From assembly GCA_019187185.1 (NCBI GenBank), contig JABAQU010000015.1, positions 105,665 through 169,664 of the forward strand: DNA of 64,000 nt, written 5' to 3'. Position numbers and translations under genes: made by a program. Below the pieces are notes generated by a model, which worked only from the letters and a program-made list of their open reading frames with translations, was not told the origin of the DNA and did no database searches. How positions within the stretch are numbered: position 1 is the first letter of the stretch; each line of letters begins with the position of its first letter. This DNA is from Steroidobacteraceae bacterium. Lineage in GTDB: Bacteria > Pseudomonadota > Gammaproteobacteria > Steroidobacterales > Steroidobacteraceae. Positions 1-59,026 of the stretch are shown here, in pieces.

Positions 1-1120
1 CGCGTCCGGCAGGCCGCTCGCGGAGGGCGATATCGTGCGGCTCTTCGACGCACAGGGCCCGGACCTGCGTGCAGTGCTGCACGCCGCCGACCGGCTGCGC
101 GCCGAAAGCGTCGGCGAGGGCGTGTCGCACGTCGTCAATTGCAACATCAACTACACGAACATCTGCAAGCACCGCTGCGGTTTCTGCGCCTTCGCGAAAG
201 GCCGCAGCGCCGCGAGCCTGCGCGGGCCGGCCTACAACTACTCGCCGGACGACGTGGCGAGGCGCGCGGTCGAAGCATGGCAGCGTGGCGCCACGGAAGT
301 GTGCCTGCAGGGTGGCATCCACCCGGAGTACACCGGCCGCACCTACCTCGATATCGTGGCGGCGGTGAAGCGTGCCGTGCCGCAGATGCACGTGCATGCG
401 TTCTCGCCGCTCGAGGTCCGCCATGGCGCACAGTCCCTCGGGCTGTCGCTGCACGAATACCTGCGCGAGCTGCAGGCGACCGGCCTCTCGACGCTGCCCG
501 GCACGGCCGCCGAGATCCTCGACGACGAGATCCGGGCCGTGATCTGCCCGGACAAGCTCACCACCGCGGAGTGGCTCGAAGTGATCCGCGAGGCCCACAC
601 GATCGGCCTCCGGACGACCGCCACGATCATGTTCGGTCACGTCGAGCGTCCCGTGCATTGGGCGCGCCACCTGCTCAGGGTGAGGAGACTGCAGGAGGAG
701 ACGGGCGGCTTCACCGAATTCGTGCCGCTGCCCTACGTGCACATGGAGTCACCGATGTGGCGTCGCGGCCGCAGCCGCTCGGGGCCCACGCTGCGCGAGG
801 CAGTTCTGATGCATGCGATTGCGCGACTCGTTCTGCACCCGGTGATCCGCAGCATCCAGGCGTCGTGGGTCAAGATGGGTCCGAAGGGCGTCGCGCTCTG
901 CCTGCAGGCGGGCGCGAACGATCTCGGCGGCACACTGATGTACGAATCGATCACGCGGGCGGCGGGTGGCGTCAACGGGCAGGAATTCGATGCGACCGCC
1001 ATGGCGGAGCTCGTGGCGGGCATCGGCCGGCCGCTCTGGCAGCGCACCACACTGTACGGCCGCGTCGAGGCCGGCGCGATGGCACGGCAGGCCGCGCCAC
1101 GCGAGTGCGCGGCAGGTTAG
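1..1120 (+). CDS. cofH: FO synthase (7,8-didemethyl-8-hydroxy-5-deazariboflavin synthase) CofH subunit, or the CofH half of a fused FbiC; 5' end lies outside the window
   Basis: The frame is open from base 2, with no stop upstream of the ORF-track start at 35. Radical-SAM motif CKHRCGFC is preceded by NCNINYTNIC, and the C-terminal region carries GANDLGGTLMYESI. cofE, cofD and npdG in the same window favour CofH over the homologous MqnC/MqnE enzymes. Confidence 0.85.
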   Translation, partial: ASGRPLAEGDIVRLFDAQGPDLRAVLHAADRLRAESVGEGVSHVVNCNINYTNICKHRCGFCAFAKGRSAASLRGPAYNYSPDDVARRAVEAWQRGATEVCLQGGIHPEYTGRTYLDIVAAVKRAVPQMHVHAFSPLEVRHGAQSLGLSLHEYLRELQATGLSTLPGTAAEILDDEIRAVICPDKLTTAEWLEVIREAHTIGLRTTATIMFGHVERPVHWARHLLRVRRLQEETGGFTEFVPLPYVHMESPMWRRGRSRSGPTLREAVLMHAIARLVLHPVIRSIQASWVKMGPKGVALCLQAGANDLGGTLMYESITRAAGGVNGQEFDATAMAELVAGIGRPLWQRTTLYGRVEAGAMARQAAPRECAAG

Positions 1121-1691: not shown

Positions 1692-2573
1692 ATGCAATTC
1701 TGGCAATCATCGTTCCTGTGCGAGGGTGAACACCTGTTCGACATGGTGAAGCACTGCGAGTCCGCGGGGTTTCACGGCATTCTCGTGTCGGATCATCTCC
1801 TGCATCCCGAGAAGCAGGATTCGAAGTACCTGTACTCGACCGACCACAAGCCGCCGCAGTTCGAGGCGGACACCCTGTGGCCCGAGGCGTGGTCGTTCAT
1901 CGGCGCGCTCGCCGCCGTGACGAAGAAGCTGCACTTCTGCACGAACGTCTTCATCCTGCCGCTGCGCCACCCGCTCGAAGTCGCGAAGGCCACGGGCAGC
2001 GTCGGCTACTTCTCCGGGGGGCGCGTGCACCTCGGTGTCGGCGCCGGGTGGATGAAGGAAGAGTTCGAGATGCTGGGCATCGACTTCCACACCCGCGGCA
2101 AGCGCTACGACGAATGCATCGAGGTCATCCGCAAGGTGCAGACGGGAAAATTCGTGGAGCACCACGGGCAGTTCTTCAATTTCCCGCGCATCATCATGAC
2201 GCCGGCGCCGCCGGCACCGGTGCCGATCCTGATCGGTGGCACGAGCGACGTGGCGCTGCGTCGCGCGGCACGCATCGGCGACGGCTGGGTGTCGCCGGGA
2301 CAGCCGCTCGAGGATGAAATCGCCACGCTGAAGAAACTCGATGCGCTGCGTCGCGAGTACGGCACGCACGGCAAGCCGTTCAACTCGATCGTGGCGATCA
2401 TGCGGGGAGAGGACAAGCCGGTCACGCCGGCCGACATCCGTCGCCTGGAAGATGCGGGCGCCACCGGCTTCACGATCCTGCCGTTCCGGTTCACGATCGG
2501 CCGCGGCACGACGCTCGCGCAGAAACGGGCGGAAATCGACCGGGTCGCCACGGAGTTGATCGCGAAGGTCTGA
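1692..2573 (+). CDS. LLM-class (luciferase-like) oxidoreductase, probably F420-dependent
   Basis: 293 aa. Motifs GFHGILVSDHL, VHLGVGAGW, PILIGGTSDVALRRAARIGDGWVS. Paralogue of 8511..9377. Starts 9 nt after the preceding gene. Confidence 0.8.
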   Translation: MQFWQSSFLCEGEHLFDMVKHCESAGFHGILVSDHLLHPEKQDSKYLYSTDHKPPQFEADTLWPEAWSFIGALAAVTKKLHFCTNVFILPLRHPLEVAKATGSVGYFSGGRVHLGVGAGWMKEEFEMLGIDFHTRGKRYDECIEVIRKVQTGKFVEHHGQFFNFPRIIMTPAPPAPVPILIGGTSDVALRRAARIGDGWVSPGQPLEDEIATLKKLDALRREYGTHGKPFNSIVAIMRGEDKPVTPADIRRLEDAGATGFTILPFRFTIGRGTTLAQKRAEIDRVATELIAKV

Positions 2574-8510: not shown

Positions 8511-9377
8511 ATGAAGTTCGCACTGCTGCTCGGGTTCAGCCACCATCGTGATTTCCCGGCGCTCGCGCAGGCCGCCGAAGCAGCGGGCTTCAACTCGGTG
8601 TGCATCCCCGACAGCCTCTTTTACCCGAAGGCGACGGAATCGGAGTATCCGTACAACGATACGGAAACCATCCGCGGCTACATCAGCGCGACGGAATTCA
8701 TCGAACCGTTCATCGCGATGGCCACGATGGCGGCCGTCACTTCCCGCGTGCGCTTCTACCCGAGCGTGCTGAAGGTGCCGGTGCGCCAGCCGCTCGTGCT
8801 CGCCAAGCTGCTCACCTCGCTCGCCGTCGTCAGCGATGGCCGCGTCGCGCTCGGCGCGGGCTTGAGCCCGTGGAAGGAAGACTTCACGTACAACGGCGTG
8901 CGCTACGAGCGTCGCGGCGCGCTGATGGACGAGTGCATCCAGATCATCCGCGGTGTCATGTCGGGCGACTATTACGAACACCACACCGAGAACTACGATT
9001 TCGGACCGCTCAAGATGAACCCGGTGCCCGCGCGGCCCATCCCGATCCTGATCGGCGGACACGCGGCGCCGGCACTGAAACGTGCCGCGCGGGTCGGAGA
9101 CGGCTGGATATCCGCGAACAGCGACTACGAATCGCTGGCGAAGCTGATCGCCCAGCTGAACGGCTATCGGCGGGAGTACGGCACGCTGGACCGCAAGGAT
9201 TTCGAGATCCACGTGATCGATTCCAATGCGCAGACCGTCGCCGATTTCCAGCGTCTCGAGGCGCTCGGCGCCACCGAAGCAGCGCTCATCGCCTGGCCGC
9301 CGCAGGTACGCGATGGCCGCCAGCAGATCGAGGCGATCAAGCGCTTCGGCGACACGGTCGTCGCGAAGTTCCGCTAG
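8511..9377 (+). CDS. LLM-class (luciferase-like) oxidoreductase, probably F420-dependent
   Basis: 288 aa. GFNSVCIPDSL, VALGAGLSPW, PILIGGHAAPALKRAARVGDGWIS. Paralogue of 1692..2573. Starts 6 nt after the ligase gene. Confidence 0.85.
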   Translation: MKFALLLGFSHHRDFPALAQAAEAAGFNSVCIPDSLFYPKATESEYPYNDTETIRGYISATEFIEPFIAMATMAAVTSRVRFYPSVLKVPVRQPLVLAKLLTSLAVVSDGRVALGAGLSPWKEDFTYNGVRYERRGALMDECIQIIRGVMSGDYYEHHTENYDFGPLKMNPVPARPIPILIGGHAAPALKRAARVGDGWISANSDYESLAKLIAQLNGYRREYGTLDRKDFEIHVIDSNAQTVADFQRLEALGATEAALIAWPPQVRDGRQQIEAIKRFGDTVVAKFR

Positions 9378-40067: not shown

Positions 40068-40745
40068 CTAATTCTGCTTCGGCACGCCCGTGATGCGGAT
40101 GCCGGAGGCGGGCACCTTGTAGCGCTGGTTGATGGCGATCAGGACCGACGTCAGCGCTTCCGCCACGACGGAATTGGCGAGCACGCCGGCGTACCAGGCG
40201 CCGAGCCCGATCGCGCTGGCGAGCCCGATCACCGTGTCGGCCGACGCCCGGTCGTTGCTGCAGACGAGCACCTCGCACTCGATCTTGTGGTTCAGGTCCT
40301 TCAGGTGATGGGCGGAAATGTTCTGGAACGCCGAGACGACCTTGACCTCGTCACCGAGCAGGTCCTGCATCGCCTCGACGGCGGAGCGGCCCCCGGGCAG
40401 CTGGACGCGGCTCACCTTCGGCGGCACGAGCGGTACCGTGACATCGACGAGGATCTTGCCGGCGAGGGCGTGGCGCACGTCCTCCACGGTCTGCCGCTGT
40501 GCGGCAAAGGGGACCGTCAGCACGACGATGCTGGCGGCCGCCGCGGCGGCCGGGTTGTCGAGGCCGCGGGCCCCATCGCGCCCGAGCAGCTCGTTGATTT
40601 CGCGGGCGGCCTGTTCGGCCTTTTCGGCCGTGCGACTGCCGATGATCACGGGGAAGCCGGCGTGCGCCCACCGGAACGCGAGCCCGCTGCCTTCCTTGCC
40701 CGAGCCGCCGAGGACTGCGATGACCGGGCGCGATTCGTCGTGCAT
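40068..40745 (-). CDS. npdG: NADPH-dependent F420 reductase (F420H2:NADP+ oxidoreductase)
   Basis: 225 aa from ATG 40745, with AGGAGA upstream. VIAVLGGSGKEGSGLAFRWAHAGFPVIIGSRTAEKAEQAA and NSVVAEALTSVLIAIN are typical of Fno/NpdG. The ORF-track extension to 41240 was rejected. Confidence 0.85.
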   Translation of the reverse strand: MHDESRPVIAVLGGSGKEGSGLAFRWAHAGFPVIIGSRTAEKAEQAAREINELLGRDGARGLDNPAAAAAASIVVLTVPFAAQRQTVEDVRHALAGKILVDVTVPLVPPKVSRVQLPGGRSAVEAMQDLLGDEVKVVSAFQNISAHHLKDLNHKIECEVLVCSNDRASADTVIGLASAIGLGAWYAGVLANSVVAEALTSVLIAINQRYKVPASGIRITGVPKQN

Positions 40746-40908
40746 CTGGGGTTCTCCTGATTTTCCCGACGGTATAGCAACCCGGCCGCCGGGCGTCCTA
40801 CCCCATTGGGACGACACGGGTTTCTGGTCCGAGTGGACGAGGCCAAGGGCACGTAATCCTGTCAGCCTCCTCGCCGGCCGGACGACGGATACCGTGAGGA
40901 GCCGCTCG

Positions 40909-42534: not shown

Positions 42535-43164
42535 ATGGACGATCAGCAGATTCTCGCGCGGCTCGACCGCCTCGAATCGATCGAAGCGATCCGCGGTCTC
42601 GCCGCGAGATACTCGCTGTCGCTCGACATGCGAGACCTCGACGCGCACGTGAACCTCTTCGCGCCCGACATCCGCGTCAGTCGCGAGAAGGTCGGCCGCG
42701 CCCACCTGAAGTCGTGGCTGGACGAGACGCTGAGGGAGCAGTTCACGGGCACGTCGCATCACCTCGGCCAGCACATCATCGAGTTCAGCGACCCGGACCA
42801 CGCGATCGGGGTCGTGTACTCGAAGAACGAACACGAGTGCGGACCGGAATGGGTCATCATGCAGATGATCTACTGGGACGACTACGAGCGCATCGAGGGC
42901 CGCTGGTATTTTCGCCGCCGGCTGCCGTGCTACTGGTACGCGACCGACCTCAACAAGCCGCCGATCGGCGGGATGAAGATGCGCTGGCCGGGGCGCGAAC
43001 CCTACGACGGGGCCTACCACGATCTTTTCCCGTCCTGGAAGACGTTCTGGGCCGCGCGTCCGGACAAGGACAAGCTTCCGGAAGTCGCGCCACCCGCGCC
43101 GCTCGAACACTTCCTCGAAACGATGCGCCGGGGTGCACCCGTCCCGAAGATCCGGGTGCGCTGA
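42535..43164 (+). CDS. SnoaL-like / NTF2-fold protein (SnoaL_4) with C-terminal extension
   Basis: 209 aa. LDRLESIEAIRGLAARYSLSLDMRD...WDDYERIEGRWYFRRR. Second member of this fold in the window. Confidence 0.75.
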   Translation: MDDQQILARLDRLESIEAIRGLAARYSLSLDMRDLDAHVNLFAPDIRVSREKVGRAHLKSWLDETLREQFTGTSHHLGQHIIEFSDPDHAIGVVYSKNEHECGPEWVIMQMIYWDDYERIEGRWYFRRRLPCYWYATDLNKPPIGGMKMRWPGREPYDGAYHDLFPSWKTFWAARPDKDKLPEVAPPAPLEHFLETMRRGAPVPKIRVR

Positions 43165-43165
43165 C

Positions 43166-44242
43166 ATGGCGGGACTTTTCGATCCGCTGCAACTCGGCGA
43201 CATTGCGCTCGCCAACCGCGTGATCATGGCACCTATGACGCGATCGCGGGCGAGTGCCGACGCGGTACCGACCCCGATCATGGTGGAGTACTACCGGCAG
43301 CGCGCGAGCGCCGGGCTCATCGTCTCCGAAGGCATCGCGCCGTCGCGCCACGGGATCGGCTACTGCCGCACGCCGGGCATCTACAACGATGCGCAGGTCG
43401 CCGTCTGGCGCCAGGTCACCGATGCGGTGCACGCGGCAGGCGGACGCATCGTTGCGCAGCTGATGCACTGTGGCCGCGTGGGGTCTCATTTCAACAAGGC
43501 GCCCGATGCGGAAACGGTGGCGCCGTCCGCGGTGCGCGCCGCGGGCAGCATCTTCACCGATGTGGCCGGCATGCAGGAGCAGGACATGCCGCGCGCCCTG
43601 GCACTCGGGGAGATCCCGGATGTGGTCGGTGAGTACGCCACCGCGACACGCCTCGCGATCCAGGCGGGCTTCGATGGCGTGGAACTGCATTGCACGAGCG
43701 GCTACCTGCCGATGCAGTTCATGGCGACGAACAGCAACCTGCGCACGGATGGCTATGGCGGCTCGGCGCGGAACCGTGTCCGCTTCGTGATCGAGACGCT
43801 CGAAGCGATGACGCAGGAGGCCCGCGGACGGGTCGGCATGCGCATCTGCCCCGGCAACCCGTTCAACGACGTCCTCGATCCGGATCCGGCGGCGACCTAT
43901 CAGGCGCTGCTGTCCGGCAGCGCCGGGCTGCAGCTCGCCTACCTGCACGTGATTCGCTCGCCGCTGCGCAGCCTCGATGCGTTCGCACTTGCGCGCGAGC
44001 ACTTCGGCGGTGCACTCATCCTCAACGACGGCTTCGATGGTGCCAGGGCATCGAAGGCGCTCGCCGAGGGCCGGGGCGCGGCGGTCTCGTTCGCGCGTCA
44101 TTACATCGGCAATCCGGATCTCGTGCACCGGTTGCGCGAGGGCCTGCCGCTCGCGGCCTTCGACCCGAAGTCGCTCTATACGCCGGGGCAGGCCGGCTAC
44201 ACCGACTATCCGCGCGCCGACACAGCCACCGCCCCGTCGTGA
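43166..44242 (+). CDS. Old Yellow Enzyme family alkene reductase (NADH:flavin oxidoreductase)
   Basis: 358 aa from ATG 43166. LANRVIMAPMTRSRA, GFDGVELHCTSGYL, RTDGYGGS. Confidence 0.9.
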   Translation: MAGLFDPLQLGDIALANRVIMAPMTRSRASADAVPTPIMVEYYRQRASAGLIVSEGIAPSRHGIGYCRTPGIYNDAQVAVWRQVTDAVHAAGGRIVAQLMHCGRVGSHFNKAPDAETVAPSAVRAAGSIFTDVAGMQEQDMPRALALGEIPDVVGEYATATRLAIQAGFDGVELHCTSGYLPMQFMATNSNLRTDGYGGSARNRVRFVIETLEAMTQEARGRVGMRICPGNPFNDVLDPDPAATYQALLSGSAGLQLAYLHVIRSPLRSLDAFALAREHFGGALILNDGFDGARASKALAEGRGAAVSFARHYIGNPDLVHRLREGLPLAAFDPKSLYTPGQAGYTDYPRADTATAPS

Positions 44243-44381
44243 GTTCGACGGCAAGGCGCGTCTCCACGGGCGGATCGCCGAGGGTTGCCGGGTCCCGATA
44301 CCGGGCGGTGCGCCCCGGGCTCGCGCCAGGGGACCAGCGCGGCCTCTGGCCCGGTCTATCTCGTGGGTCTTTTCCGGGCTG

Positions 44382-44936
44382 ATGGCAATGCGTTGCAACG
44401 AGACCACGCGCAAGCGGCTGGCCTCCTGGTTCGGCCAGTGGGCGAAGCCCCTGCGCCAGCATCTCGCGCTGCGCGGCAGGCTGTCGCCCGCCGACGCCGA
44501 TGATGTCGCGCAGGAGGTGTTCCTGCGCCTGCTGCGGTATGAGCGGTCGGAACTCGTGAGTCACCCGCAGGCCTACCTGTTCAAGATCGCCGCAAATGTG
44601 CTGGCGGAATGGTCGACACGTGCACGCTGGAAGCAACCACACGCATCGGAATGGCTGGGTGACCTCACGGACGAGCGGGACCCGGCACATGAATTTGCCC
44701 GAACGGACGAGCACTCCACCATGAGGAGTGCCATAGCGGGCCTGCCGGGGCGCGCGCGGGAGATCCTGCGCCTGCATTACGAAGAGGGGTTGACACACGA
44801 GTCGATTGCACGGCAGCTGGGCATCACGCGGCGGATCGTGAAACGGGATCTCATTCGGGCCTATGCAGAACTGCGCGCCTCGATCGGCGCGCCGACCGCC
44901 GCCGCAGCCTCTGCGGTGTCGAGGAGCACAGCGTGA
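44382..44936 (+). CDS. ECF-type RNA polymerase sigma factor (FecI-like)
   Basis: About 184 aa. Region 2 DADDVAQEVFLRLL and region 4 LTHESIARQLGITRRIVKRDLIRA. Directly followed by a FecR-like gene. Confidence 0.85.
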   Translation: MAMRCNETTRKRLASWFGQWAKPLRQHLALRGRLSPADADDVAQEVFLRLLRYERSELVSHPQAYLFKIAANVLAEWSTRARWKQPHASEWLGDLTDERDPAHEFARTDEHSTMRSAIAGLPGRAREILRLHYEEGLTHESIARQLGITRRIVKRDLIRAYAELRASIGAPTAAAASAVSRSTA

Positions 44937-45988
44937 TGAACACAGGCACGCCGAATGCGGAAGAGCGCCGCCGCGTCGCAGCCGAGCAGGCAGCCGCCTG
45001 GCTCGTGGCACTGCGCGAGGACCGGTTGTCCGCGCACGAGCGCGGCGAGTTCGTCGACTGGCTGCGCGAGTCGCCTGTCCATGTGGCCGAGATGCTGCGG
45101 ATCAGCCAGTTGGATCAGGCACTGGCGGAGTTCGGTGACTGGACGGCACTGCCGGCAGCGACACCAACGCCCGACAATGTCGTGCAGTTGCTGCCGGGCC
45201 CGTCGCGACCGGCGGCGCGTCGCCCGCGGTTTGCGGGATTGACCCGTGCGATTGCGGCGGGACTGGCCATCGTGGTTGTCGCCGGCGGCGGCTGGCTTGC
45301 ACTGAGGGAACAGGGCACGGTCGTGCGCACCCAGCTCGCGGAGCGACGCGAGATGATCCTCGCCGACGGCAGCGCCGTGAGCATTGCCCCGCTGAGCGAA
45401 TTGCGCATCCGGTACACGGCCGACCGACGCTCGATCGAACTGCGCAAGGGGCATGCGCACTTCGACGTGACCCATGACGCGCGACGCCCGTTCGTCGTCG
45501 ATGCGGGCACCGCCACGGTGCAGGCTGTCGGCACGTCGTTCGATGTCGAGCGCGCTCCCGGGAGCGTGCGGGTCACTGTCGTCGAGGGGCGTGTGGCCGT
45601 CACGCAGCAGGAGAAGGGGGCGACGGGCAGTGTGCCTTCACCCGCGACCGTGCCCGCCCGCGTGATGCTCGGGGCGAATGAGGAAATCGTGGTGCCGTCC
45701 CAGGCCCCCATGACTGCAGTGGTGCACCAGGTGAACGCACCGGCACAGGCGGCCTGGACGACAGGGTCACTCGTGTTCGAAGACGAAACCGTGGCCGAAG
45801 TCGTGCGGCGCTTCAATCTGCACAACCAGGCGCAGATCCGGATCCTCGACCCCGAACTCGCCGCTCGCCGCATCAGTGGAACCTTCAGGGCGTCGGATCC
45901 CGAGTCCTTCATCGCATTCATCCACGCGACAAGCGCGTCCCCCGCCGGCGACCGATCCGTTATCCTCGTGGAGCCTCACTCCCGATAA
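44933..45988 (+). CDS. FecR-family transmembrane anti-sigma / signal-transducing protein
   Basis: 351 aa. N-terminal AAEQAAAWLVALRED...FVDWLRESPVHVAEM, one TM segment (AIAAGLAIVVVAGGGWLAL), and a periplasmic FecR domain. Overlaps the sigma-factor stop. Confidence 0.85.
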   Translation: MMNTGTPNAEERRRVAAEQAAAWLVALREDRLSAHERGEFVDWLRESPVHVAEMLRISQLDQALAEFGDWTALPAATPTPDNVVQLLPGPSRPAARRPRFAGLTRAIAAGLAIVVVAGGGWLALREQGTVVRTQLAERREMILADGSAVSIAPLSELRIRYTADRRSIELRKGHAHFDVTHDARRPFVVDAGTATVQAVGTSFDVERAPGSVRVTVVEGRVAVTQQEKGATGSVPSPATVPARVMLGANEEIVVPSQAPMTAVVHQVNAPAQAAWTTGSLVFEDETVAEVVRRFNLHNQAQIRILDPELAARRISGTFRASDPESFIAFIHATSASPAGDRSVILVEPHSR

Positions 45989-46008
45989 GGCCTGGGTCCT
46001 GGGGGACC

Positions 46009-48555
46009 ATGCAGATACGTCGACCGGTCCTATGTTCGTTGCTGAAGCAACTTGCATGGGGATTTCTCGTGATTACAACGTTCGATTCGCCGGCCGCAGC
46101 CGGCTCCGACATGTCCGCTCCCGCATCCCGGATCGTCCATCAGTTCGACGTCCCGGCCGGCGCGCTGGACACGGCCCTGCGCGAACTCGCGCTGCAGGCG
46201 GGCATACAGCTCGCTCATTTCTCGACCGCGATACCGCGCTCGATGCGCACGCCCCGGCTGCAGGGTGCCTATACGCTGGAACAGGCCCTGACGCGGCTGC
46301 TGGATGGAACGGGTCTCGCCTATCGGTTCGCGAACGAGCGAACCGTCGTCATCGTTGCGGCCCGTACACCGGCATCGTCCGCGTTTCCGGCACCATCCCC
46401 GGTGGCCGCGGCACGCGACCAGACGCCACCCGGGAGCCGTACACGCCATTGGCTCGCGCGGCTCGCGGCCTTCTTCGCGGTGTGTGCGCCGGCAACCGGT
46501 ACCGTCTGCGCGCAGGAGAACGGCCCCGCGGCTCTCGAGGAGGTCACGGTGACCGCCCAGCGGCGCGAGGAATCGATGCAGGAGACGCCGATCGCGATCA
46601 CGGCCTTCACCGCCCGTGATCTCGAGACCCAGCGGATCAACAACGTGATGGACTTCGTGAACAAGGCGCCGTCGGTCAATCTCGCGCCCTTCGCCGGCAC
46701 CCGCGTCGCGCCGAACCTCTTCATCCGCGGCATGGGCAACCTCGCCGCGCAGATCACCAAGGACAATGCCACGGGCATCTACATCGACGGCGTGCCCGTC
46801 GGACGCGGCATCGGGCTCGCGGTGGACATCGCCGATCTCGAGCGCGTGGAGTTGCTGCGCGGTCCGCAGGGGACCCTCTGGGGTCGCAACACGACAGCCG
46901 GTGCCATCAACTTCATCACCAAGAAGCCGGAAGACGACCTGTCGTTCGCGGCGCAGCTGACTGCGGGCAGCTGGGATCAGCTGTCCGGCCGCGCGCGAGT
47001 CAACGTGCCGATCACCGACCGCCTGTTCGCGCGCGTCGCCTACATGCGGATGGAGAACGACGGCTGGGTGAAAAACACCAACACGACGCTGCCGAACCAG
47101 ATCAACTTCAACGAAGATCGGGTGAAGGAGGCCTACAAGGCGGCACTGCGCTTCGAGCCGACGGACGCGATCGTCGTCGACTACAGCTTCGACAGTTCGC
47201 GCATGGTCTACGGCAATCACTTCTACCAGATCCTGCAGGGCCCCAACGCGGTCCCGGGCCGGCAGGAATCCGCCAACCGCGTGCGGGGGCTCTACCCGAG
47301 CCGCACGGAGGTTTCCGGGCACAATCTGACCGCGAGCTGGGATCTCGGTGACGTCACGCTGAAGTCGATCAGCGCCTACCGTGATCTCGACAGCTCGACG
47401 AACATGAACTACGTCGACATCTTCACGCAGGACAACAACCAGGGTCAGCACCAGTTCTCGCAGGAACTGCAACTGATCGGTGATGCGCTGGGCCGGGTCA
47501 GCTATGTGCTGGGCCTCTTCTACTTCGAGGAGGGCGCCCACGAAGCGCTCGCGTCGAACTTTGCCGGCGGCGCACTGGTCGATTACTGGCGCGTGAAGGC
47601 CAAGGGCACGTCGGCTGCCGTGTACGGGCAGGCCAAGTGGACCCCGCCGGTGCTCGACGATCGCCTCGGCGTCACGCTCGGCATGCGCTATACGGAAGAT
47701 TCGCGCAAGGCCACCAAGGACTACGTGAACCCGGGCTTCACGCCGGCCATCACCGGGCTCGTGGTCTCGGGCGATCGCGATTTCAGCTCGTTCGATCCCG
47801 CGGTGAGCCTCGAGTACGCATTCACCGGCACGATCAACGGCTACGCGAAGTATTCCACGGGCTACCGCGCCGGCGGATTCAGCACGCAGAGCACGCCGGC
47901 CTATTTCGGGCCCGGCTTCAACGAGGAGAACGTCAAGGCCTGGGAAGTCGGCCTCAAGTCCGACCTGCTCGCGCGGCGCCTGCGCGTCAATGTCGCGGCC
48001 TTCCGCAGCAAGTACAGCGACCTGCAGGTCGACCAGGCCCGCACGCCGCCGATCTTCGTCGATACGCTCAACGCGGGCAGTGCGACGGTGAAGGGCGTGG
48101 AACTCGAGACCACGGCAGTGCTCGCGCGCGGCCTGACCGCGAATCTCTTCTACTCCTGGCTCGACGGCGAGTACCAGTCGTATGTCGACAACGGCGTGGA
48201 ACTCGCGGCCGTGCGGCACATGCAGAACGCGCCGCGCTACCAGGTCGGCGCGGGCGTCGAGTACGCGTTCCCGCCGCTGCCGATCGGCAACTTCATCCTG
48301 AATGTCGATTACCACAAGCAGGACGAGTTCTACGCGGGCCCGATCGCCAATACGCTCTCGCCGGGTTACGACGTGTGGAACGCGCGCCTCGAGCTCGCCG
48401 ACATCCCCGTGCCGCACGGCTCATTGCGCGTGGCGGCCTGGGGCAAGAACCTCGCCGACGAGATCTATCGATACTCGACGACGAACCTCGGCGTGATCAG
48501 CGCGCAGTTCGCGCCGCCGCGCTCGGCGGGCGTGGATCTCGTCTATGAGTTCTGA
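46009..48555 (+). CDS. TonB-dependent receptor with N-terminal STN signalling domain (FecA-type transducer)
   Basis: 848 aa. STN domain (FDVPAGALDTALRELALQAGIQL...LLDGTGLAYRF), plug (EEVTVTAQRREESMQETPIAITAF), and C-terminal GVDLVYEF. Confidence 0.9.
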   Translation: MQIRRPVLCSLLKQLAWGFLVITTFDSPAAAGSDMSAPASRIVHQFDVPAGALDTALRELALQAGIQLAHFSTAIPRSMRTPRLQGAYTLEQALTRLLDGTGLAYRFANERTVVIVAARTPASSAFPAPSPVAAARDQTPPGSRTRHWLARLAAFFAVCAPATGTVCAQENGPAALEEVTVTAQRREESMQETPIAITAFTARDLETQRINNVMDFVNKAPSVNLAPFAGTRVAPNLFIRGMGNLAAQITKDNATGIYIDGVPVGRGIGLAVDIADLERVELLRGPQGTLWGRNTTAGAINFITKKPEDDLSFAAQLTAGSWDQLSGRARVNVPITDRLFARVAYMRMENDGWVKNTNTTLPNQINFNEDRVKEAYKAALRFEPTDAIVVDYSFDSSRMVYGNHFYQILQGPNAVPGRQESANRVRGLYPSRTEVSGHNLTASWDLGDVTLKSISAYRDLDSSTNMNYVDIFTQDNNQGQHQFSQELQLIGDALGRVSYVLGLFYFEEGAHEALASNFAGGALVDYWRVKAKGTSAAVYGQAKWTPPVLDDRLGVTLGMRYTEDSRKATKDYVNPGFTPAITGLVVSGDRDFSSFDPAVSLEYAFTGTINGYAKYSTGYRAGGFSTQSTPAYFGPGFNEENVKAWEVGLKSDLLARRLRVNVAAFRSKYSDLQVDQARTPPIFVDTLNAGSATVKGVELETTAVLARGLTANLFYSWLDGEYQSYVDNGVELAAVRHMQNAPRYQVGAGVEYAFPPLPIGNFILNVDYHKQDEFYAGPIANTLSPGYDVWNARLELADIPVPHGSLRVAAWGKNLADEIYRYSTTNLGVISAQFAPPRSAGVDLVYEF

Positions 48556-52269: not shown

Positions 52270-53019
52270 TCAATTCGCGGTCTGGCCCCCGTCGACAGGC
52301 AGTGCGATGCCGGTAATGCGCCGGGCCTCGTCGCAGGCGAGGAAGGCGACGGCGTCGGCGATGTCCGGCGGCTCGCAGGGCTCGCCGCCGTTCAGCCACG
52401 GTGCCGATCGCGTGAGGAGCGCGTAGTCCACGCCCTCGGGCGGTGGGCCCATGACCATCGGGGTCTGCACCTTGGTCGGGCAGATCGCATTGACACGCAC
52501 GCCAGCCGCAGCAAATTCCAGTGCGAGCGCGCGGGTGAGACCCACGACCCCGTGCTTCGAGGCGACATAGGGCGCACCGTAGGGTACCCCGACGAGGCCG
52601 GCCGACGAGGCGAGATTGACGATGCAGCCTTTCGTCTCGACGAGTTTCGGCAGCGCGGCCTGGCACATGAAAAACGTGCCGCTCAGGTTGATGCGCAGGA
52701 TGCGATTCCACTCCTCCGGCGTGATCGCGGCGACCGGCGCGAGGCGCAGCACGCCTGCAACATTGCAAAGGACGTCGACACGGCCGGTCGACTCGACTGC
52801 CAGCCGCACGATTGCCGCGCAGTCTGCCGGGTTCGAGACGTCGAAGGCGTGCGCGAGCGCGACATCACCGAGTTCGGCCTTGACGTTCGTCAAGCCGGCG
52901 GCATTGATGTCTCCCAGCACGACCCGGGCACCTTCGCGCGCAAAGCGCACCGCCACCGCATGGCCGATGCCCGAAGCGGCACCCGTGACAATCACTGTCC
53001 TGCCCTGAAACCGCGACAT
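52270..53019 (-). CDS. short-chain dehydrogenase/reductase (SDR)
   Basis: 249 aa from ATG 53019; alternative start at 53034. VIVTGAASGIGHA, NVAG, YVASKHG. Confidence 0.85.
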   Translation of the reverse strand: MSRFQGRTVIVTGAASGIGHAVAVRFAREGARVVLGDINAAGLTNVKAELGDVALAHAFDVSNPADCAAIVRLAVESTGRVDVLCNVAGVLRLAPVAAITPEEWNRILRINLSGTFFMCQAALPKLVETKGCIVNLASSAGLVGVPYGAPYVASKHGVVGLTRALALEFAAAGVRVNAICPTKVQTPMVMGPPPEGVDYALLTRSAPWLNGGEPCEPPDIADAVAFLACDEARRITGIALPVDGGQTAN

Positions 53020-53156
53020 GCCACGCTGCTCCATTGCGCGGCCGGCGCCGCATCTGCGCAGCATTACGCAGCCGCGAGCACCGCCTGTCAATCGCGTACG
53101 ATTGTGCTGTCGAAGCGGCCGTGCCAGTCTGCACGTGCGAACCGAGGAGGGGATGT

Positions 53157-53924
53157 ATGGGATTGGTGGACGGACGACTCGCGATTGTCACCGGCGCCGG
53201 CCAGGGTGTGGGGCGCGGAACGGCGCTCGCGCTCGCCACGGACGGTGCGGCGGTGGCCGTACTCGGGAGAACGGCATCGAGCGTCGAGGAAACCTGCGAG
53301 GAGATCCGTCGCCGGGGCGGCAAGGGCTACCCGGTGATCGGCAATGCGCACGATCGGGATGACATCGCGCGCATGGTCGCGGAAGCCGTCAGGGCCCTCG
53401 GCGGCGTCGACATCCTGGTGAACAACGCGAATTTCTCCGCGAGCAGCATGGGACCGCTGCTGTCGATCTCCGACGACGATCTCGTGCTCGGCTTCATGGC
53501 GGGCCCCGTGTCCACGATGCGCTTCATGAAGGCCTGCTACCCGCACATGAAGGCGCGCGGTCGTGGCGACATCATCAACATGGTGACGTCGGCGATGGTG
53601 CGCTGGGATGCGCGGAATTTCGGCCTGTACGCGGCCTACAAGCAGGCCGTGCGCTCGCTGACCCGTGCGGTGGCGCACGAGTGGGCGCCGGACGGGATCC
53701 GCGCGCTCAACATCGCGCCGCATGCGACGTCGCCGGCGCTGAAGAACTGGACCCGCGAGAAGCCGGAGGAAGCCGCCGAGTTCACGAAGTCGATTCCCGC
53801 AGGGCGGATCGGCGATTGCGAACTCGATATCGGGCGCGGCATCGTCGCGCTGCTGAACAAGGATCTGTCTTACCTGACCGGCGCGACGATTCCGCTCGAC
53901 GGCGGCCAGGCTTACTTCGGTTAG
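53157..53924 (+). CDS. short-chain dehydrogenase/reductase (SDR), atypical
   Basis: 255 aa from ATG 53157, with GAGGAGGGG upstream. LAIVTGAGQGVGRG, NNAN, YAAYKQA. Confidence 0.85.
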   Translation: MGLVDGRLAIVTGAGQGVGRGTALALATDGAAVAVLGRTASSVEETCEEIRRRGGKGYPVIGNAHDRDDIARMVAEAVRALGGVDILVNNANFSASSMGPLLSISDDDLVLGFMAGPVSTMRFMKACYPHMKARGRGDIINMVTSAMVRWDARNFGLYAAYKQAVRSLTRAVAHEWAPDGIRALNIAPHATSPALKNWTREKPEEAAEFTKSIPAGRIGDCELDIGRGIVALLNKDLSYLTGATIPLDGGQAYFG

Positions 53925-53934
53925 GAGAACCGGC

Positions 53935-56073
53935 ATGGGCCGAGGAAGCTATTCTCATCTGTTGTCTCCCGGCCGCATCGGCGGGATGCAACTGAAGAAC
54001 CGCATCGTCGTGACGGCGATGGGAGTGAGTCTCGCCGAGGCGGATGGCACCGTCGGGGAGCGCCTGCTCGCCTACCACGAAGAACAGGCGAAGGGCGGCG
54101 CCGGGCTCATCATCAGCGGCGTCTGCGGCGTCGCGTGGCCGGTCGGTGCGGTCATCAGGAACCAGATCGCACTGTCGGAAGATCGGTTCATTCCGGGCCT
54201 CACGCGGCTCGCCGATGCGGTCCATGCGCACGGCGCGAAATTTGCCGTTCAGCTCCACCATGGCGGCCTCGTGGCCGCCTACGCTCTCGGCCATGGCGAG
54301 CCGATGTGGTGTCCGTCGCTGCCGACGCACGATCCGGATGCGGAGGACGTGACTGATGCGCTCGTCGAGAGCGAATTGCCGATCTTCGCCGGCGGACCGC
54401 AGATCGGGCCGGACAGCTTCAAGGTCGTGAGCACGGACGACATCCAACTCGCGGTGCGGCAGTATGCGGCGGCGGCGGTGCGCGCGCGGGAAGCCGGCGT
54501 CGACGGTGCGGAGATCCACGCCGGTCACGGATACCTGCTCTCGAGCTTCATTTCGCCGCGCAGCAACCATCGCACCGACGAGTACGGCGGCCCGCTCGAA
54601 AACCGGGTGCGCTTCGTGCTCGAAGTCATTCGTGCCGTCCGTGCGGCGACGGGCCCTGATTTCGCGCTCTGGGTGAAGATCGACTCGCAGCAGTTCGGCG
54701 CCGCAGATGGCATCCAGCTGCCGGACGCCGTACGCACAGCGCAGATGATCGAAGCGGCCGGCGCCGATGGCGTGACCGTCTCCTCCTACCACGATGTCGG
54801 CCGGCTCAAGCTGCATTCGGAATCGAACATCCCGCACATTCCCGGCTGGAACCTGCCGGCGGCCGCCGAAATCAGGCGCGCGATCGGCATTCCGGTCATC
54901 GCTTCGGGCCGTGTCGAACCCGACGTCGCCGATGGGAAGATCGCGGCAGGCGCGTTCGATTTCCTCGGCATGGGACGCAAGCTGCTGGCCGACCCGCACC
55001 TGCCGCGCAAGCTCGCCGAAGGCGCTCCCGGGACGATCCGGCCCTGCATCTACTGCTACACCTGTGTCAGTGCGATATACCTGCTCGACTCGGTGCGCTG
55101 CGCGGTCAATGCCGATCTCGCATTCGAGTACCTGCATCGGGGCGGTCGCAGTGCTGCGCCGAAGCGCTACGTCGTCGTCGGGGGCGGGCCCGGAGGCATG
55201 GAGGCCGCGCTGCGCCTCGATGCGCAAGGACACAAGGTCACGCTGCTCGAGCGCACGGCACGTCTCGGTGGCACATTGCAGATCGCCGCGCTGCCGTATG
55301 AGCCGAATGAACGGCTGCTCGACTGGTTGCGCGCACGGATTGCGGCATCGGGCGTCGAGGTCAGGCTCGGGACACCAGCCACACCCGAGCTCGTGGCGGC
55401 GCTTGCGCCGCATGCCGTGCTGGTCGCCACCGGTGCGCGGCGCGACCTGCCGCCCATTCCCGGCGCCGATCTGCCGCAGGTATTGAGCGGGGACGACCTG
55501 CGCCGGATGTTGCTGGGTCAGTCGAATCCCGAACTCGCGAGGAAGCTGCCGCTCGCGGCCCGCATGGCAACGAGGGCCGGCGCTGCGCTCGGCCTGACCG
55601 CGGACCCCGCGTTCGTCCGCAAGGCAACCCGGCAGTGGATGCCGCTCGGCAAGCGGATCGTCATCATCGGCGGCGAACTGGTCGGCATCGAGCTCGCCGA
55701 GTTCCTGGTCGAACGGGGGCGCAGTGTCGCCGTCGTGGAGGAAGGGGCGCGCATGGGCGCCGGCCTGCAGCTCGTGCGGCGCATGCGGATCCTCGCGGAA
55801 CTGCGCGAGCACGGCGTGTCGCTGATGACCGGTGCACGGGACATCCGCATCGAGGCGGCAGGCGTCCGCTTCGTCGACGGGGGCGGAATGGAGAAAGTGT
55901 TGGGCGCAGACCACGTGATCGTGGCGCGCGGCGCTGCCGGCGATACGGCGACGGCCGAGGCCCTGCGCGCGGCCGGACTCGACGTGCACGCATTCGGCGA
56001 CTGCACCGGCGTCGGCTACATCGAGGGTGCCATTCGGGGTGCCGCGAATCTCGTCGCCGAACTCACGCAGTGA
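53935..56073 (+). CDS. FadH-like 2,4-dienoyl-CoA reductase type enzyme (OYE TIM barrel + 4Fe-4S + FAD/NAD(P)-binding domains)
   Basis: 712 aa. LKNRIVVTAMG, QLHHGG, RTDEYGG, Cys cluster RPCIYCYTCVS...RCAVN, dinucleotide folds VVVGGGPGGMEAA and IVIIGGELVGIELAEFL. Confidence 0.9.
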   Translation: MGRGSYSHLLSPGRIGGMQLKNRIVVTAMGVSLAEADGTVGERLLAYHEEQAKGGAGLIISGVCGVAWPVGAVIRNQIALSEDRFIPGLTRLADAVHAHGAKFAVQLHHGGLVAAYALGHGEPMWCPSLPTHDPDAEDVTDALVESELPIFAGGPQIGPDSFKVVSTDDIQLAVRQYAAAAVRAREAGVDGAEIHAGHGYLLSSFISPRSNHRTDEYGGPLENRVRFVLEVIRAVRAATGPDFALWVKIDSQQFGAADGIQLPDAVRTAQMIEAAGADGVTVSSYHDVGRLKLHSESNIPHIPGWNLPAAAEIRRAIGIPVIASGRVEPDVADGKIAAGAFDFLGMGRKLLADPHLPRKLAEGAPGTIRPCIYCYTCVSAIYLLDSVRCAVNADLAFEYLHRGGRSAAPKRYVVVGGGPGGMEAALRLDAQGHKVTLLERTARLGGTLQIAALPYEPNERLLDWLRARIAASGVEVRLGTPATPELVAALAPHAVLVATGARRDLPPIPGADLPQVLSGDDLRRMLLGQSNPELARKLPLAARMATRAGAALGLTADPAFVRKATRQWMPLGKRIVIIGGELVGIELAEFLVERGRSVAVVEEGARMGAGLQLVRRMRILAELREHGVSLMTGARDIRIEAAGVRFVDGGGMEKVLGADHVIVARGAAGDTATAEALRAAGLDVHAFGDCTGVGYIEGAIRGAANLVAELTQ

Positions 56074-56837
56074 CGACCGGACTGCAACTCATCGCGGTAC
56101 CGGACATGCCGCTGGTGCAGGCCGGGGACGACCTGGCCGGGCTCATCATCGAGAGGCTGGCCGCGGCTGGTCAAGTCCCGAGGGACGATGATGTCATCGT
56201 CATTGCACAGAAAATCGTCTCGAAGGCGGAAGGCCGCATCGTCGACCTGACATCGGTCGAGCCCTCGGCCCGCGCCGAGGAACTGGCGATCGTGCTCGCC
56301 AAGGATCCACGACTTGTCGAACTCATCCTGTCCGAATCACGGCGCGTCGTGCGCGCCGTGAGGAATGTGCTCATCGTCGAGCATCGACTCGGCCTGATCA
56401 TGGCCAACGCGGGTGTCGACCAGTCGAATGTCGCCGATCCGGACGGTCCTCCGCTTGCGCTGCTGCTGCCGAAGGATCCGGATGCCAGCGCGTCGCGACT
56501 CCGGGAGGATATTCATCGCCGGCTCGGCTGCCGTGTCGGCGTCGTCATCAACGACAGCTTCGGCCGTCCGTGGCGGGTGGGTACCGTGGGCGTGGCGATC
56601 GGCTGTGCGGGCCTGCCGGCAGTCGTCGACCGGCGCGGCGATCCCGACCTCTTCGGCCGGACACTGCAGACGACGGTCGTCGCATATGCCGACGAGATCG
56701 CGGCGGCCGCGTCCCTGCTCATGGGCCAGGCGGAGGAGTCGCGCCCGGTGATCCTCGTGCGCGGACTGCGGTCGGACAAGCCGCATCAGGCGGCGACCGC
56801 GCTGCTGCGTCCGCGGGGCGAGGATCTGTTCCAGTGA
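56070..56837 (+). CDS. cofE: coenzyme F420-0:L-glutamate ligase, single-domain CofE type
   Basis: 255 aa from GTG 56070, with GTGA overlap on the FadH-like stop. [49 protein letters not shown]. There is no C-terminal nitroreductase-like domain as in FbiB. Confidence 0.85.
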
Positions 56838-57781
56838 GCGGCAAGGTTCTCGCGCTGGCCGGGGGCATCGGCGGCGCCAAGCTCGTGCTCGGCCTGGCGC
56901 GTGTGCTCGGTGACGGTGAGCTCGTCGTCGTCGGCAACACCGGCGATGACTTCAATCACCTCGGCTTCAGTATTTCGCCGGACCTCGACACGCTGCTCTA
57001 CACGCTCGCCGGCCTCGCGGACCGCTCGCGCGGCTGGGGTCGCCGGCGCGAAACATGGAAGTTCATGGCGGCGCTCGAGCAACTCGGCGGCCCTAGCTGG
57101 TTTCGCCTCGGAGACGCCGATCTCGCCCTGCACGTCGAGCGGACTCGGCGACTGGCGTCAGGCGAGAGCCTGACATCCGTGATGGATCACTTGCGTCGCG
57201 AACTCGGTGTGGCCACGCGCCTCGTGCCGATGACCGACGATCCGGTACGTACGCGGCTGCGCTCCGGCCGCGAATGGCTGGACTTCCAGGATTATTTCGT
57301 GCGCCTGCGCTGCGAGCCCGCCGTGGAGGAAATTGCCTATGTCGGCGCCGAATCCGCACGGCCGCAGCCCGAGATCCTGGCGCTCCTCGGCGGCAAGGAC
57401 CTGCGAGCGGTCGTCATCTGCCCATCCAATCCGTTCCTCAGCATCGAGCCCATCCTCGCGATTCCGGGCATGCGGTCCGCGATCGCGCAATGCGCTGCGC
57501 CGGTCGTGGCGGTGTCGCCGATCATCGCCGGCCGGGCCGTCAAGGGTCCGACGGCCAAGATGATGCGCGAATTCGGCATCGAGGTGACGGCGACCGCGGT
57601 CGCGCGCCATTACGCCCGGCTGATCGATGTGTTCGTGGTCGACGAAGCAGATGTCGATGCCGAGGTTCCGGGCGAGGTCGAATGCGTTACCGCGAGCACA
57701 CTCATGGTCACGCTCGCCGACCGCAAACGGCTGGCACGTTCGGTGCTCGCCGCGGCCGACGCCATCTCACGCTCCCGGTAA
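56834..57781 (+). CDS. cofD: 2-phospho-L-lactate transferase (LPPG:FO transferase)
   Basis: 315 aa from GTG 56834, with GTGA overlap on the cofE stop. VLALAGGIGGAKLVLGL, VVGNTGDDFNHLGFSISPDLDTLLYTLAG, VICPSNPFLSIEPIL. Confidence 0.9.
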   Translation: MSGKVLALAGGIGGAKLVLGLARVLGDGELVVVGNTGDDFNHLGFSISPDLDTLLYTLAGLADRSRGWGRRRETWKFMAALEQLGGPSWFRLGDADLALHVERTRRLASGESLTSVMDHLRRELGVATRLVPMTDDPVRTRLRSGREWLDFQDYFVRLRCEPAVEEIAYVGAESARPQPEILALLGGKDLRAVVICPSNPFLSIEPILAIPGMRSAIAQCAAPVVAVSPIIAGRAVKGPTAKMMREFGIEVTATAVARHYARLIDVFVVDEADVDAEVPGEVECVTASTLMVTLADRKRLARSVLAAADAISRSR

Positions 57782-58126
57782 CCACCGGGCGCCTGGACTA
57801 GCGGTCGCCCGAGATCTGGTGACGGACCATCGAGACCACCTGGGCAACCAGCAGGCCGAGGGTGGCGATGCATTGAAAGGCGACGAATTCCATGGAGGCG
57901 CTCCGGCAAGGTAGCAGGGTCAAGTGCAGGGGCGCGCATGATAGGGACGCCGCGCGGCGGCCGCCGGACATGCCGCACGAATCCGGGAGATTGTGGCGTT
58001 CCGGCCGCCCGACGCCCGCGCGCCTGTGCCGGGCTGGCCGATGCGCGGTGACATAACGCGCCCTTGCTTGCCGGGCTATTGCACGGGCCGCTACATTCGG
58101 CCGCTCACTTGCTGGAGGATCATGGC

Positions 58127-59026
58127 ATGACGACAGCGACATCGGCCCCGGCCGCGGGACTCGGGCGGCTCGCCGCCCCGCCATTCGTGGGTATCCTGGC
58201 GTTCGTGGCCGTACTCGGCATCGTGCCGCTGATGCACAGTGTCCTGCAGCTCGTGCTGGATGAATTCCCCGAGGGCTACGACACGCCGGTCAGTCTCGGC
58301 ATCGGTGCCGTCGCGGTCGGCCTGATGATCTACGGCTCCCTGAGCCGGAGCGAGGCCGTCGGCACGTGGCTCGGCTTCATCGCCGCGCACCTCGTCTGGT
58401 CGGGCTGGATCGAGCTGTCGTTCCGTTTCAACCCGGTCTACATGGGCATGGGCCCGTTGATCGTCGACGGCGAGCATGTCCTGTCGGCCAGCCTGCTGTT
58501 CGTCGAGGCGACCGTCGGCCTGCTGATGGCGACGCTGCCGTTTTTCGTGTTCAACAAGGATACGCGTTGCAATGCCTTCATGTGGATCCAGCGCATGTGC
58601 CGTTACGACGCGGGCAAGCCGTCGGCGGCGAGCGAGCGCAATTTCGCGCGGATCACGTTCCTCGAGGTCCTGTACGTGGTCTGGTTCTGCTATGCCGTGT
58701 CGCTGTTCCTCGTCGATTCGCGGTTCTTCGGCCTGCATCACCCGGTGACCTATGTCGCGACTTTCCTGCTCGCGATCTGGGCCTTCTACCTCCTGATGCG
58801 GCTCGCGCGCTTCACCCGCATCCTGGCCGCGGTGCGCTACTCGATCCCGACCGCGGGCGTCATGTGGATCACGATCGAGATCACGCAGGAGTGGGGCCTC
58901 TACGAGGAGTTCTGGACGAAGCCGCGGGAATACGCCCTCGAGATGAGCCTGCTGCTCGGCGCCTTCGTCGTCGCATTGGTGCTCGCCGTCGTGATGCCGC
59001 GCCGGCGCACGGTCAGGCCCGATTGA
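58127..59026 (+). CDS. integral membrane protein of unknown function
   Basis: 299 aa from ATG 58127, with GGAGGA upstream. About 7 hydrophobic segments. I recognise no family. Confidence 0.7.
   Translation: MTTATSAPAAGLGRLAAPPFVGILAFVAVLGIVPLMHSVLQLVLDEFPEGYDTPVSLGIGAVAVGLMIYGSLSRSEAVGTWLGFIAAHLVWSGWIELSFRFNPVYMGMGPLIVDGEHVLSASLLFVEATVGLLMATLPFFVFNKDTRCNAFMWIQRMCRYDAGKPSAASERNFARITFLEVLYVVWFCYAVSLFLVDSRFFGLHHPVTYVATFLLAIWAFYLLMRLARFTRILAAVRYSIPTAGVMWITIEITQEWGLYEEFWTKPREYALEMSLLLGAFVVALVLAVVMPRRRTVRPD

Follow-up and report, generated by a model that had tools for sequence, protein, structure and literature searches.

Genes for the biosynthesis of the deazaflavin cofactor F420 are already known from Proteobacteria, as described in PMC8498797, and the cofactor itself has been shown in Paracoccus denitrificans and Oligotropha carboxidovorans (Ney et al. 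2017, as cited in PMC8498797). PMC8764529 treats F420 as established in Gram-negative bacteria and describes its physiological role there as unknown. Here, we analyze a stretch of 64,000 nucleotides (hereafter the window) from an uncultured Steroidobacteraceae bacterium, in which cofE and cofD, two genes of F420 biosynthesis, directly follow genes for a short-chain dehydrogenase/reductase (SDR) and for a large iron-sulfur flavoenzyme that we call RED. The window corresponds to positions 105665–169664 of contig C3 of the query genome, G000, an assembly of 3.55 Mb in 45 contigs with a GC content of about 67%. The component families are all known. What is new is the organization: cofE and cofD (together, cofED) are part of a probable catabolic SDR/ene-reductase operon, fno is detached from them, and cofC is fused to fbiC.

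The closest described systems are the proteobacterial operons of the type fno-cofE-cofD-cofC, with fbiC nearby. The locus shares with these a single-domain CofE, CofD, a CofC of the type that uses 2-phospholactate (2-PL) or phosphoenolpyruvate (PEP), fused CofG-CofH (FbiC), and Fno, as well as the absence of FbiB's C-terminal domain and the adjacent, co-directional placement of cofE and cofD. It differs from them in having fno at a distance of 12 kb, a relocated cofC that is fused to fbiC, and the SDR and RED genes upstream of cofE. In the mycobacterial FbiA/FbiB/FbiC/FbiD pathway, PEP leads to dehydro-F420-0, which is reduced by FbiB's C-terminal domain. At the diagnostic positions, the CofC domain of G000 has the residues of FbiD (equivalents of L92, T, G163, and S166), whereas the nitroreductase-like domain is missing from CofE, and a search of G000 found no stand-alone FbiE. 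The third system, which makes 3PG-F420 from 3-phosphoglycerate (3-PG) in Mycetohabitans (Paraburkholderia) rhizoxinica, likewise has a Gram-negative host and a single-domain CofE, and the structure of the Mycetohabitans MycB3 CofC (7P97) is the best-scoring solved relative of our CofC domain (79.7 bits). However, its Ser162 is replaced here by Gly, and M91, C95, and H145 by L, L, and T.

For RED, the relatives to be considered are FadH (1PS9), the 2-naphthoyl-CoA reductase 6QKG, BaiCD/BaiH, and the 2-enoate reductases. All of these share with RED an FMN-binding TIM barrel, a four-cysteine cluster motif, and Rossmann domains of the FAD/NAD(P) type. Unlike these enzymes, RED has no match at the equivalog level, and its cluster motif reads CxxCxxC where the aligned 6QKG has CxxCxxxC.

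cofE and cofD form one tight unit with two oxidoreductase genes

The SDR, RED, cofE, and cofD genes were confirmed on the plus strand, and form one tight unit (Table 1). The identities given to them in an earlier reading of the window (the original prediction, made from the sequence alone) were borne out by Pfam and NCBIfam searches, with cofE and cofD above the respective cut-offs. CofE matched TIGR01916 (277.9 bits; cut-off 180.65) and CofD matched TIGR01819 (299.8 bits; cut-off 257.45), both over their full length, and CofD matched PF01933 as well. As had been predicted, CofE is of the single-domain type rather than the FbiB type: its only domain is PF01996 (1.9e-80, residues 13–232), and the C-terminal nitroreductase-like domain (TIGR03553) is absent from the 255-aa protein. 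A single strong tblastn match was found in G000 for each of cofE, cofD, cofC, and fbiC. The SDR showed legible TGxxxGxG and YxxxK motifs, and matched no NCBIfam equivalog at or above its cut-off.

The SDR gene starts with an ATG preceded by GAGGAGG, and is separated from RED by 10 nt. RED and cofE overlap in a GTGA stop/start at 56070–56073, where the GTG start of cofE lies within the RED stop, and cofE and cofD overlap in the same manner at 56834–56837, with cofD again starting on GTG. This geometry of translational coupling had been pointed out in the original prediction, and can be read directly in the sequence. Stop/start overlaps of 4 bases are the commonest junction in bacterial operons; the overlaps are real, yet they are an ordinary operon signature and not unusual by themselves. 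No Shine-Dalgarno sequence was found ahead of cofE, the start of which agrees with the ATG start of its orthologue in locus L030, and a GAGGA sequence is present upstream of the cofD start.

Since the gene upstream of the SDR gene lies on the opposite strand, the unit begins in the 137-nt region between the two, with the SDR gene in first position, as had been proposed. A consensus scan of 52800–58300 detected no terminator-like sites, and no sigma-70 match on the plus strand, with a single promoter-like match on the minus strand; at 67% GC, such a scan is weak. The divergent region holds an inverted repeat, CAATCG-N4-CGATTG (53089–53104), as a candidate operator. The repeat is located in a block, TGTCAATCG.GTACG.TTGTGC...CCGTGCCAGTCTGC, that is kept in the same-genus genomes G001 and G002.

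We consider it likely that cofED are co-expressed with a catabolic oxidoreductase module as one operon, in an accessory F420-using island. The four genes would most probably make up one transcription unit started in the divergent region, in which the genes for the final two steps of F420 synthesis are expressed along with two catabolic oxidoreductase genes. In these steps, CofD would couple an activated C3 acid to FO, after which CofE would add the gamma-glutamyl tail. With its start placed inside the RED stop codon and no Shine-Dalgarno sequence of its own, cofE would probably depend for its translation on ribosomes finishing RED; cofD likewise overlaps cofE. We show the gene identities, the overlaps, the completeness of the pathway, the residue type of CofC, and the distribution of the arrangement, and infer co-transcription, translational coupling, and a purpose of the arrangement, which may be to tie the supply of the cofactor to the induction of catabolism.

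The missing cofC is the first domain of an FbiC fusion

In the original prediction, no cofC or fbiD gene was visible, and the location of cofC and cofG elsewhere in the genome was proposed as a check. When this was carried out, both were found in a 992-aa CofC-CofG-CofH fusion encoded on the same contig (C3:103806–106784), 52 kb upstream of cofED. There is indeed no CofC domain inside the window, as the domain ends about 1.3 kb before its first base, but the claim that none is nearby was wrong, and an artefact of the window edge. Only the CofH part could be seen from the window, because just the last 1,120 nt of the fusion gene fall within it. The gene starts with GTG at C3:103806 and lies in an uninterrupted open frame of 1023 codons. 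Across the whole genome, a single CofC domain scored above the cut-off (C3:103821–104396), followed by CofG (C3:104541–105512) and CofH (C3:105687–106730). The CofC domain (residues 5–193 of the fusion) matched TIGR03552/PF01983 with 164.2 bits (cut-off 105), and the CofG-CofH part matched NF006687, the model for bifunctional CofGH, with 1104 bits (cut-off 1018).

The same 992-aa protein is present in a public protein collection (P0001). All four same-genus genomes with cofE contain the fusion, in open frames of 899–1023 aa, and stand-alone CofC proteins were found in other genera of the order. Among 5.8 billion collected proteins, only 17 clusters combined a CofC domain with a protein of this size, and 15 of these were 59–100% identical to the G000 fusion and belonged to this clade. 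The clusters are publicly named only “CofH” or “FO synthase”, and their CofC function has therefore been overlooked by annotation. A literature search of the searchable library returned no described CofC-FbiC fusion and no report of F420 in Steroidobacter. A different order was seen in the Steroidobacteraceae metagenome-assembled genome STL-PRO118 (G452:C3; L128:5879–9051), where fbiC is directly followed by cofE, with cofC downstream. Its cofE lies within a 993-aa open frame, which may represent either an FbiC-CofE fusion or mere adjacency in the same frame. A RED-CofE fusion was also considered for this frame, and was rejected, as the frame consists of fbiC and then cofE, with no RED.

With cofC located, the F420 pathway of G000 is rearranged but complete, within an island of about 60 kb on C3. 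The fusion protein would supply both FO and the guanylylated C3 acid. Fno, whose gene heads another operon 12 kb away, would reduce F420 with NADPH, and enzymes of the LLM, DDN, and PPOX classes would consume the resulting F420H2, with the SDR and RED acting catabolically, outside of F420 synthesis. At least 7 predicted F420-dependent enzymes are encoded on C3, namely five LLM-class enzymes (TIGR03619; two in the window), one of TIGR00026, and one PPOX-class enzyme (TIGR03618). A cofC above the cut-off and cofE co-occur in the identical 11 of 41 relatives, including 5 of the 12 species of the genus, and the island is accessory for this reason. The locus provides a concrete and testable setting for the role of F420 in these bacteria, as cofED and a catabolic cassette are found in an accessory island together with fno, LLM genes, and many genes for CoA-ester metabolism. 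Its practical value is modest, although heterologous production of F420 could be made simpler by the rare CofC-FbiC fusion and the compact set of genes.

The CofC domain points away from a 3-phosphoglycerate head group

Three C3 head groups had been left open in the original prediction: 2-PL, a PEP-derived group, or 3-PG as in Paraburkholderia. Hasan et al. (2022) describe S162 of the Mycetohabitans CofC as the diagnostic residue for 3-PG activation, with contributions from M91, C95, and H145, whereas 2-PL/PEP enzymes such as Mycobacterium tuberculosis FbiD have G163 and L92 (PMC8764529). We took Ser or Thr at the S162 position, backed by M91, C95, and H145, as the mark of a 3-PG-activating CofC, and compared the CofC domain with 7P97 and 6BWG by alignment, with the numbering offsets verified on K20, K26, R28, D116, T147, N148, and S165. 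At all four positions, the residues given above follow the 2-PL/PEP pattern, which makes a head group of the Paraburkholderia type unlikely. The C3 acid is predicted to be 2-PL or PEP, and the sequence does not choose between the two; the question is narrower than first posed. According to the same source, CofC assays cannot tell the use of 2-PL from that of PEP in vivo, and CofD co-determines the outcome by selecting among intermediates; the text available from PMC8764529 offers no sequence marker for the choice of CofD among LPPG, EPPG, and GPPG. The pathway, complete despite the apparent lack of cofC, is predicted to yield classical F420 or dehydro-F420 rather than 3PG-F420.

Linkage of RED to cofED is a derived trait of one clade

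The top 80 RED-orthologue loci (L028–L107, with L028 and L029 from G002 and G001, respectively) were inspected for cofE-cofD downstream of RED. Only five of them showed this linkage (L028, L029, L030, L031, and L036), and their REDs were 73–86% identical to that of G000. Four of these records are labelled Steroidobacteraceae, and L030 only “Proteobacteria bacterium”. The layout SDR-RED-cofE-cofD is found in G000, G001, G002, and L030, the last with a gap of 59 nt between RED and cofE. L031 and L036 have RED but no SDR, with the layouts RED-SnoaL-cofE-cofD and RED-EthD-like-SnoaL-cofE-cofD, respectively (EthD was assigned by reading the sequence rather than by a profile search). In G005 and G006, the unit is SDR-cofE-cofD without RED, and the SDR stop overlaps the cofE start; a RED of 62–63% identity is encoded elsewhere in these genomes. 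L032 carries the cofED-linked type of RED on its own, and no cofE was found in its genome. Altogether, eight Steroidobacteraceae species have cofED downstream of RED and/or the SDR. Four variant layouts are found among them, and in all eight, cofED closes a co-directional catabolic cassette at its 3' end. Orthologues of the operon SDR were found only in the five same-genus genomes with cofE, always within the cofE operon.

For comparison, 400 Gammaproteobacteria were sampled, of which 18 contained cofE, and 17 other loci were compared. Here, the usual layout was fno-cofE-cofD-cofC, with fno co-directional and directly upstream in 8 of the 17 and within 1.5 kb in 11, and a RED-like gene was upstream of cofE in none. 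In the genomes of the order that contain cofE, cofED is surrounded by fbiC, fgd- or fno-like genes, and LLM genes. The arrangement of G000 is a derived, clade-specific reshuffle of fno-cofE-cofD-cofC. Cofactor biosynthesis had originally been described as physically wired to a catabolic reductase; the physical link is present at this locus, but it is limited to one clade, variable, and not general to F420 biosynthesis.

RED belongs to a widespread family of probably catabolic flavoenzymes

RED contains an Oxidored_FMN domain (PF00724, 2.8e-61, residues 9–364) with the old yellow enzyme (OYE) motif HAGHGY, the cluster cysteines CIYCYTC-x11-C (C-x2-C-x2-C-x11-C), and a Pyr_redox_2 domain (PF07992, 4.5e-22, residues 411–683). 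Its second dinucleotide-fold motif is GGELVG rather than GxGxxG. The protein thus has the domains expected of FadH, that is, the OYE-type FMN domain, the 4Fe-4S cysteine motif, and the FAD/NADPH domains. Among solved structures, it was closest to 6QKG (253 bits), ahead of Escherichia coli FadH (1PS9; 209 bits). The top NCBIfam models, which were BaiCD, the mycofactocin-associated OYE_2, and a long bilirubin reductase, all scored below half of their cut-offs (404 bits against 825 for BaiCD), and no FadH model was among these top matches. The original name, FadH-like dienoyl-CoA reductase, appears appropriate for RED at the level of the superfamily only.

Orthologues with 57–67% identity are common in Sphingomonadales, and also occur in Betaproteobacteria, Gammaproteobacteria, and Myxococcota. 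Their neighborhoods vary and look catabolic, with genes encoding SDRs, a Baeyer-Villiger-type monooxygenase, a KstD-like flavoprotein, an acyl-CoA ligase, a thiolase, SnoaL-like proteins, and LuxR regulators. In five sphingomonad loci, SDRs 52–55% identical to the operon SDR are encoded within a few kb of RED. LLM genes near RED were considered as a marker of F420 use, and rejected as such, since they were found near RED in genomes with and without cofE. G000 itself encodes a RED paralogue (61% identical) adjoining an SDR (39% identical) at C14:38783–41676, with no F420 genes linked.

Alternatives to the proposed catabolic operon with coupled cofactor supply

Several observations weigh against the proposed co-expression of cofED with a catabolic module. 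RED may contain an internal promoter, on which the consensus scan is uninformative at 67% GC. The coupling to RED is not strictly conserved, given the 59-nt gap in L030 and the extra genes in between in L031 and L036. No homologue of FbiB-C/FbiE (TIGR03553) was detected in G000 at E ≤ 0.1, in a genome estimated to be 100% complete, and PEP as a substrate would require a further reductase, for which the reductases of the operon are the obvious candidates. Finally, cofE was found in 35 of 58 RED-bearing genomes, compared to a background of 5–8% (18 of 400 genomes sampled from the class, and 19 of 251 in an even sample drawn from the order of Sphingobium vermicomposti).

The first two points would fit a juxtaposition without functional meaning, in which cofED is expressed independently from its own promoter in the 3' end of RED, and the overlaps are a by-product of neutral rearrangement. 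The gene order around cofED is fluid, as seen from the four layouts in eight species and the gap in L030, and F420 genes are variously rearranged or fused in the family (CofC-FbiC here; fbiC followed by cofE in the 993-aa frame of G452). However, no promoter-like site was found on the plus strand, although this is a weak test, and cofE overlaps the preceding stop without a Shine-Dalgarno sequence both here, after RED, and in G005 and G006, after the SDR. In addition, cofED is kept at the 3' end of the co-directional cassette in all eight species. We consider such a chance juxtaposition unlikely.

The lack of an FbiE-type enzyme suggests another alternative, in which FbiB-C/FbiE has been replaced by a non-orthologous enzyme, RED or the SDR, that reduces dehydro-F420-0 (or PEP/EPPG). 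The operon would then be truly biosynthetic, and a PEP-fed pathway would end in saturated F420. No FbiE homologue was found in the cofE-containing relatives G002, G005, G012, and G039 either, and G021 gave a weak match of 33 bits, such that none of the five had one above the cut-off; in this respect, the locus resembles other proteobacterial F420 loci. The sole nitroreductase-fold protein of G000, encoded on another contig (C10:28846–29172), was rejected as an FbiE, as it belongs to the Acg/Rv3131 family (281 bits; cut-off 199) and is not FbiB-C-like. A replacement would agree with the 2-PL/PEP type of CofC and the tight coupling of RED, cofE, and cofD. Clostridial 2-enoate reductases belong to the superfamily of RED, and the chemistry required is the one they carry out, the reduction of the C=C bond in free alpha,beta-unsaturated carboxylates. 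Furthermore, besides the overall excess of cofE among RED carriers, cofE was present in 9 of 9 genomes from two well-supported clades of RED covering Betaproteobacteria, Gammaproteobacteria, and Myxococcota, and within the genus, the SDR orthologue occurs exactly where cofE does. If true, a saturating role of RED or the SDR would account for the tight coupling to cofED as well as for the roughly tenfold excess of cofE among RED carriers.

Nevertheless, near-identical REDs differ in their cofE status (L041/L042, L043/L047, and L081/L060), and the RED tree shows 15 changes of the F420 label, compared to 18.3 in shuffles. The genome of L032 has the cofED-linked RED type and no detectable cofE. 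Neither enzyme is a constant partner, as the unit lacks RED in G005 and G006 and the SDR in L031 and L036. In G012, G021, and G039, which are F420-capable, no close RED or SDR is present, and FbiE is likewise absent apart from the weak match in G021. None of the 17 other gammaproteobacterial loci has RED upstream of cofE, and in the even order sample, cofE was present in 2 of 9 genomes with RED and in 16 of 241 without, which is not a significant difference. A replacement at this locus seems quite improbable to us, and we think it very improbable that RED or the SDR is the missing saturating step in Proteobacteria without FbiB-C/FbiE. RED is probably not an enzyme of F420 biosynthesis, because near-identical REDs occur in genomes without cofE. 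In the absence of FbiE, three outcomes are conceivable: 2-PL is obtained from some other source, dehydro-F420 is reduced by another enzyme, or the pathway ends at dehydro-F420. The lack of FbiE, here and in four F420-capable relatives, bears on how Proteobacteria with a single-domain CofE obtain 2-PL or saturate dehydro-F420.

An initial assumption that sphingomonad RED carriers are F420-less was rejected, as cofE was found in 3 of 5, and then in 29 of 50, RED-bearing genomes. Wherever positions could be compared, RED and cofE were far apart. RED without a detectable cofE was found in the isolates Sphingobium sp. ZW T5_29, Novosphingobium lindaniclasticum LE124, Cupriavidus sp. YAF13, Pseudomonas sp. 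Au-Pse12, and Chakrabartia godavariana. The label changes on the tree, the near-identical carriers without cofE, and the even order sample argue that RED works without F420. The association of RED and cofE is statistical, not obligate, and the excess is more likely to reflect a shared accessory catabolic repertoire, or a bias of the top-80 list toward relatives of the F420-containing query.

The same excess would also be expected if RED were an F420H2-dependent reductase, with F420H2 rather than NAD(P)H as its electron donor; this would account for its link to cofactor supply. The GGELVG motif in place of GxGxxG would be compatible with this, as would a second FadH-like gene that directly follows a DDN-class gene at C3:91467–93752. 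Against it stand the near-identical REDs of isolates whose genomes yielded no cofE. The sequence of RED offers no direct support, and we know of no member of the OYE/FadH/2-enoate reductase superfamily that uses F420. We regard electron transfer from F420H2 to RED as highly improbable.

Genomic context of the unit

Table 1. Features of the SDR-RED-cofE-cofD unit and of other F420-related genes in the window
Feature	Position in window	Strand	Evidence or remark
3' end (CofH part) of the CofC-CofG-CofH fusion gene	1..1120	+	Gene start at G000:C3:103806, 1,859 nt before window base 1
Predicted F420-dependent LLM-class oxidoreductase	1692..2573	+	TIGR03619, 207 bits (cut-off 166.9)
Second predicted F420-dependent LLM-class oxidoreductase	8511..9377	+	TIGR03619, 176.9 bits (cut-off 166.9)
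fno/npdG, NADPH-dependent F420 reductase	40071..40760	-	TIGR01915, 196 bits (cut-off 149.8); PF03807
Second SDR, divergent; 5' boundary of the unit	52273..53019	-	adh_short_C2, 8.8e-60
Divergent intergenic region	53020..53156		137 nt between the minus-strand SDR and SDR-RED-cofE-cofD; presumed promoter
SDR, classical short-chain dehydrogenase/reductase, 255 aa; first gene	53157..53924	+	adh_short_C2, 2.7e-40; adh_short, 1.8e-37
RED, three-domain Fe-S flavoenzyme of the OYE/FadH/2-enoate reductase superfamily, 712 aa	53935..56073	+	PF00724, PF07992
cofE, single-domain F420-0:gamma-glutamyl ligase, 255 aa	56070..56837	+	TIGR01916, PF01996
cofD, FbiA-type 2-phospho-L-lactate/enolpyruvyl transferase, 315 aa	56834..57781	+	TIGR01819, PF01933

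Downstream of the unit, a hydrophobic open reading frame of 31 codons (57799–57894, minus strand) is convergent with cofD, and the next plus-strand frame (58124–59023, 300 aa) had no Pfam match. About 14 kb before the window, the gene pair at C3:91467–93752 consists of a TIGR00026 (DDN-class) gene followed by a gene for a FadH/OYE-like Fe-S flavoenzyme, 27% identical to RED. An F420-related gene is here paired with this enzyme class for a second time on contig C3. The window further contains genes encoding an acyl-CoA ligase, a crotonase, a CoA-transferase, and a SnoaL_4 protein. Just upstream of the operon (42977–48552), a single-domain OYE gene is followed by genes encoding an ECF sigma factor, a FecR anti-sigma factor, and a TonB-dependent transducer with an STN domain. 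The last three represent a cell-surface signalling set, which is followed by an MFS transporter and further TonB-dependent receptors.

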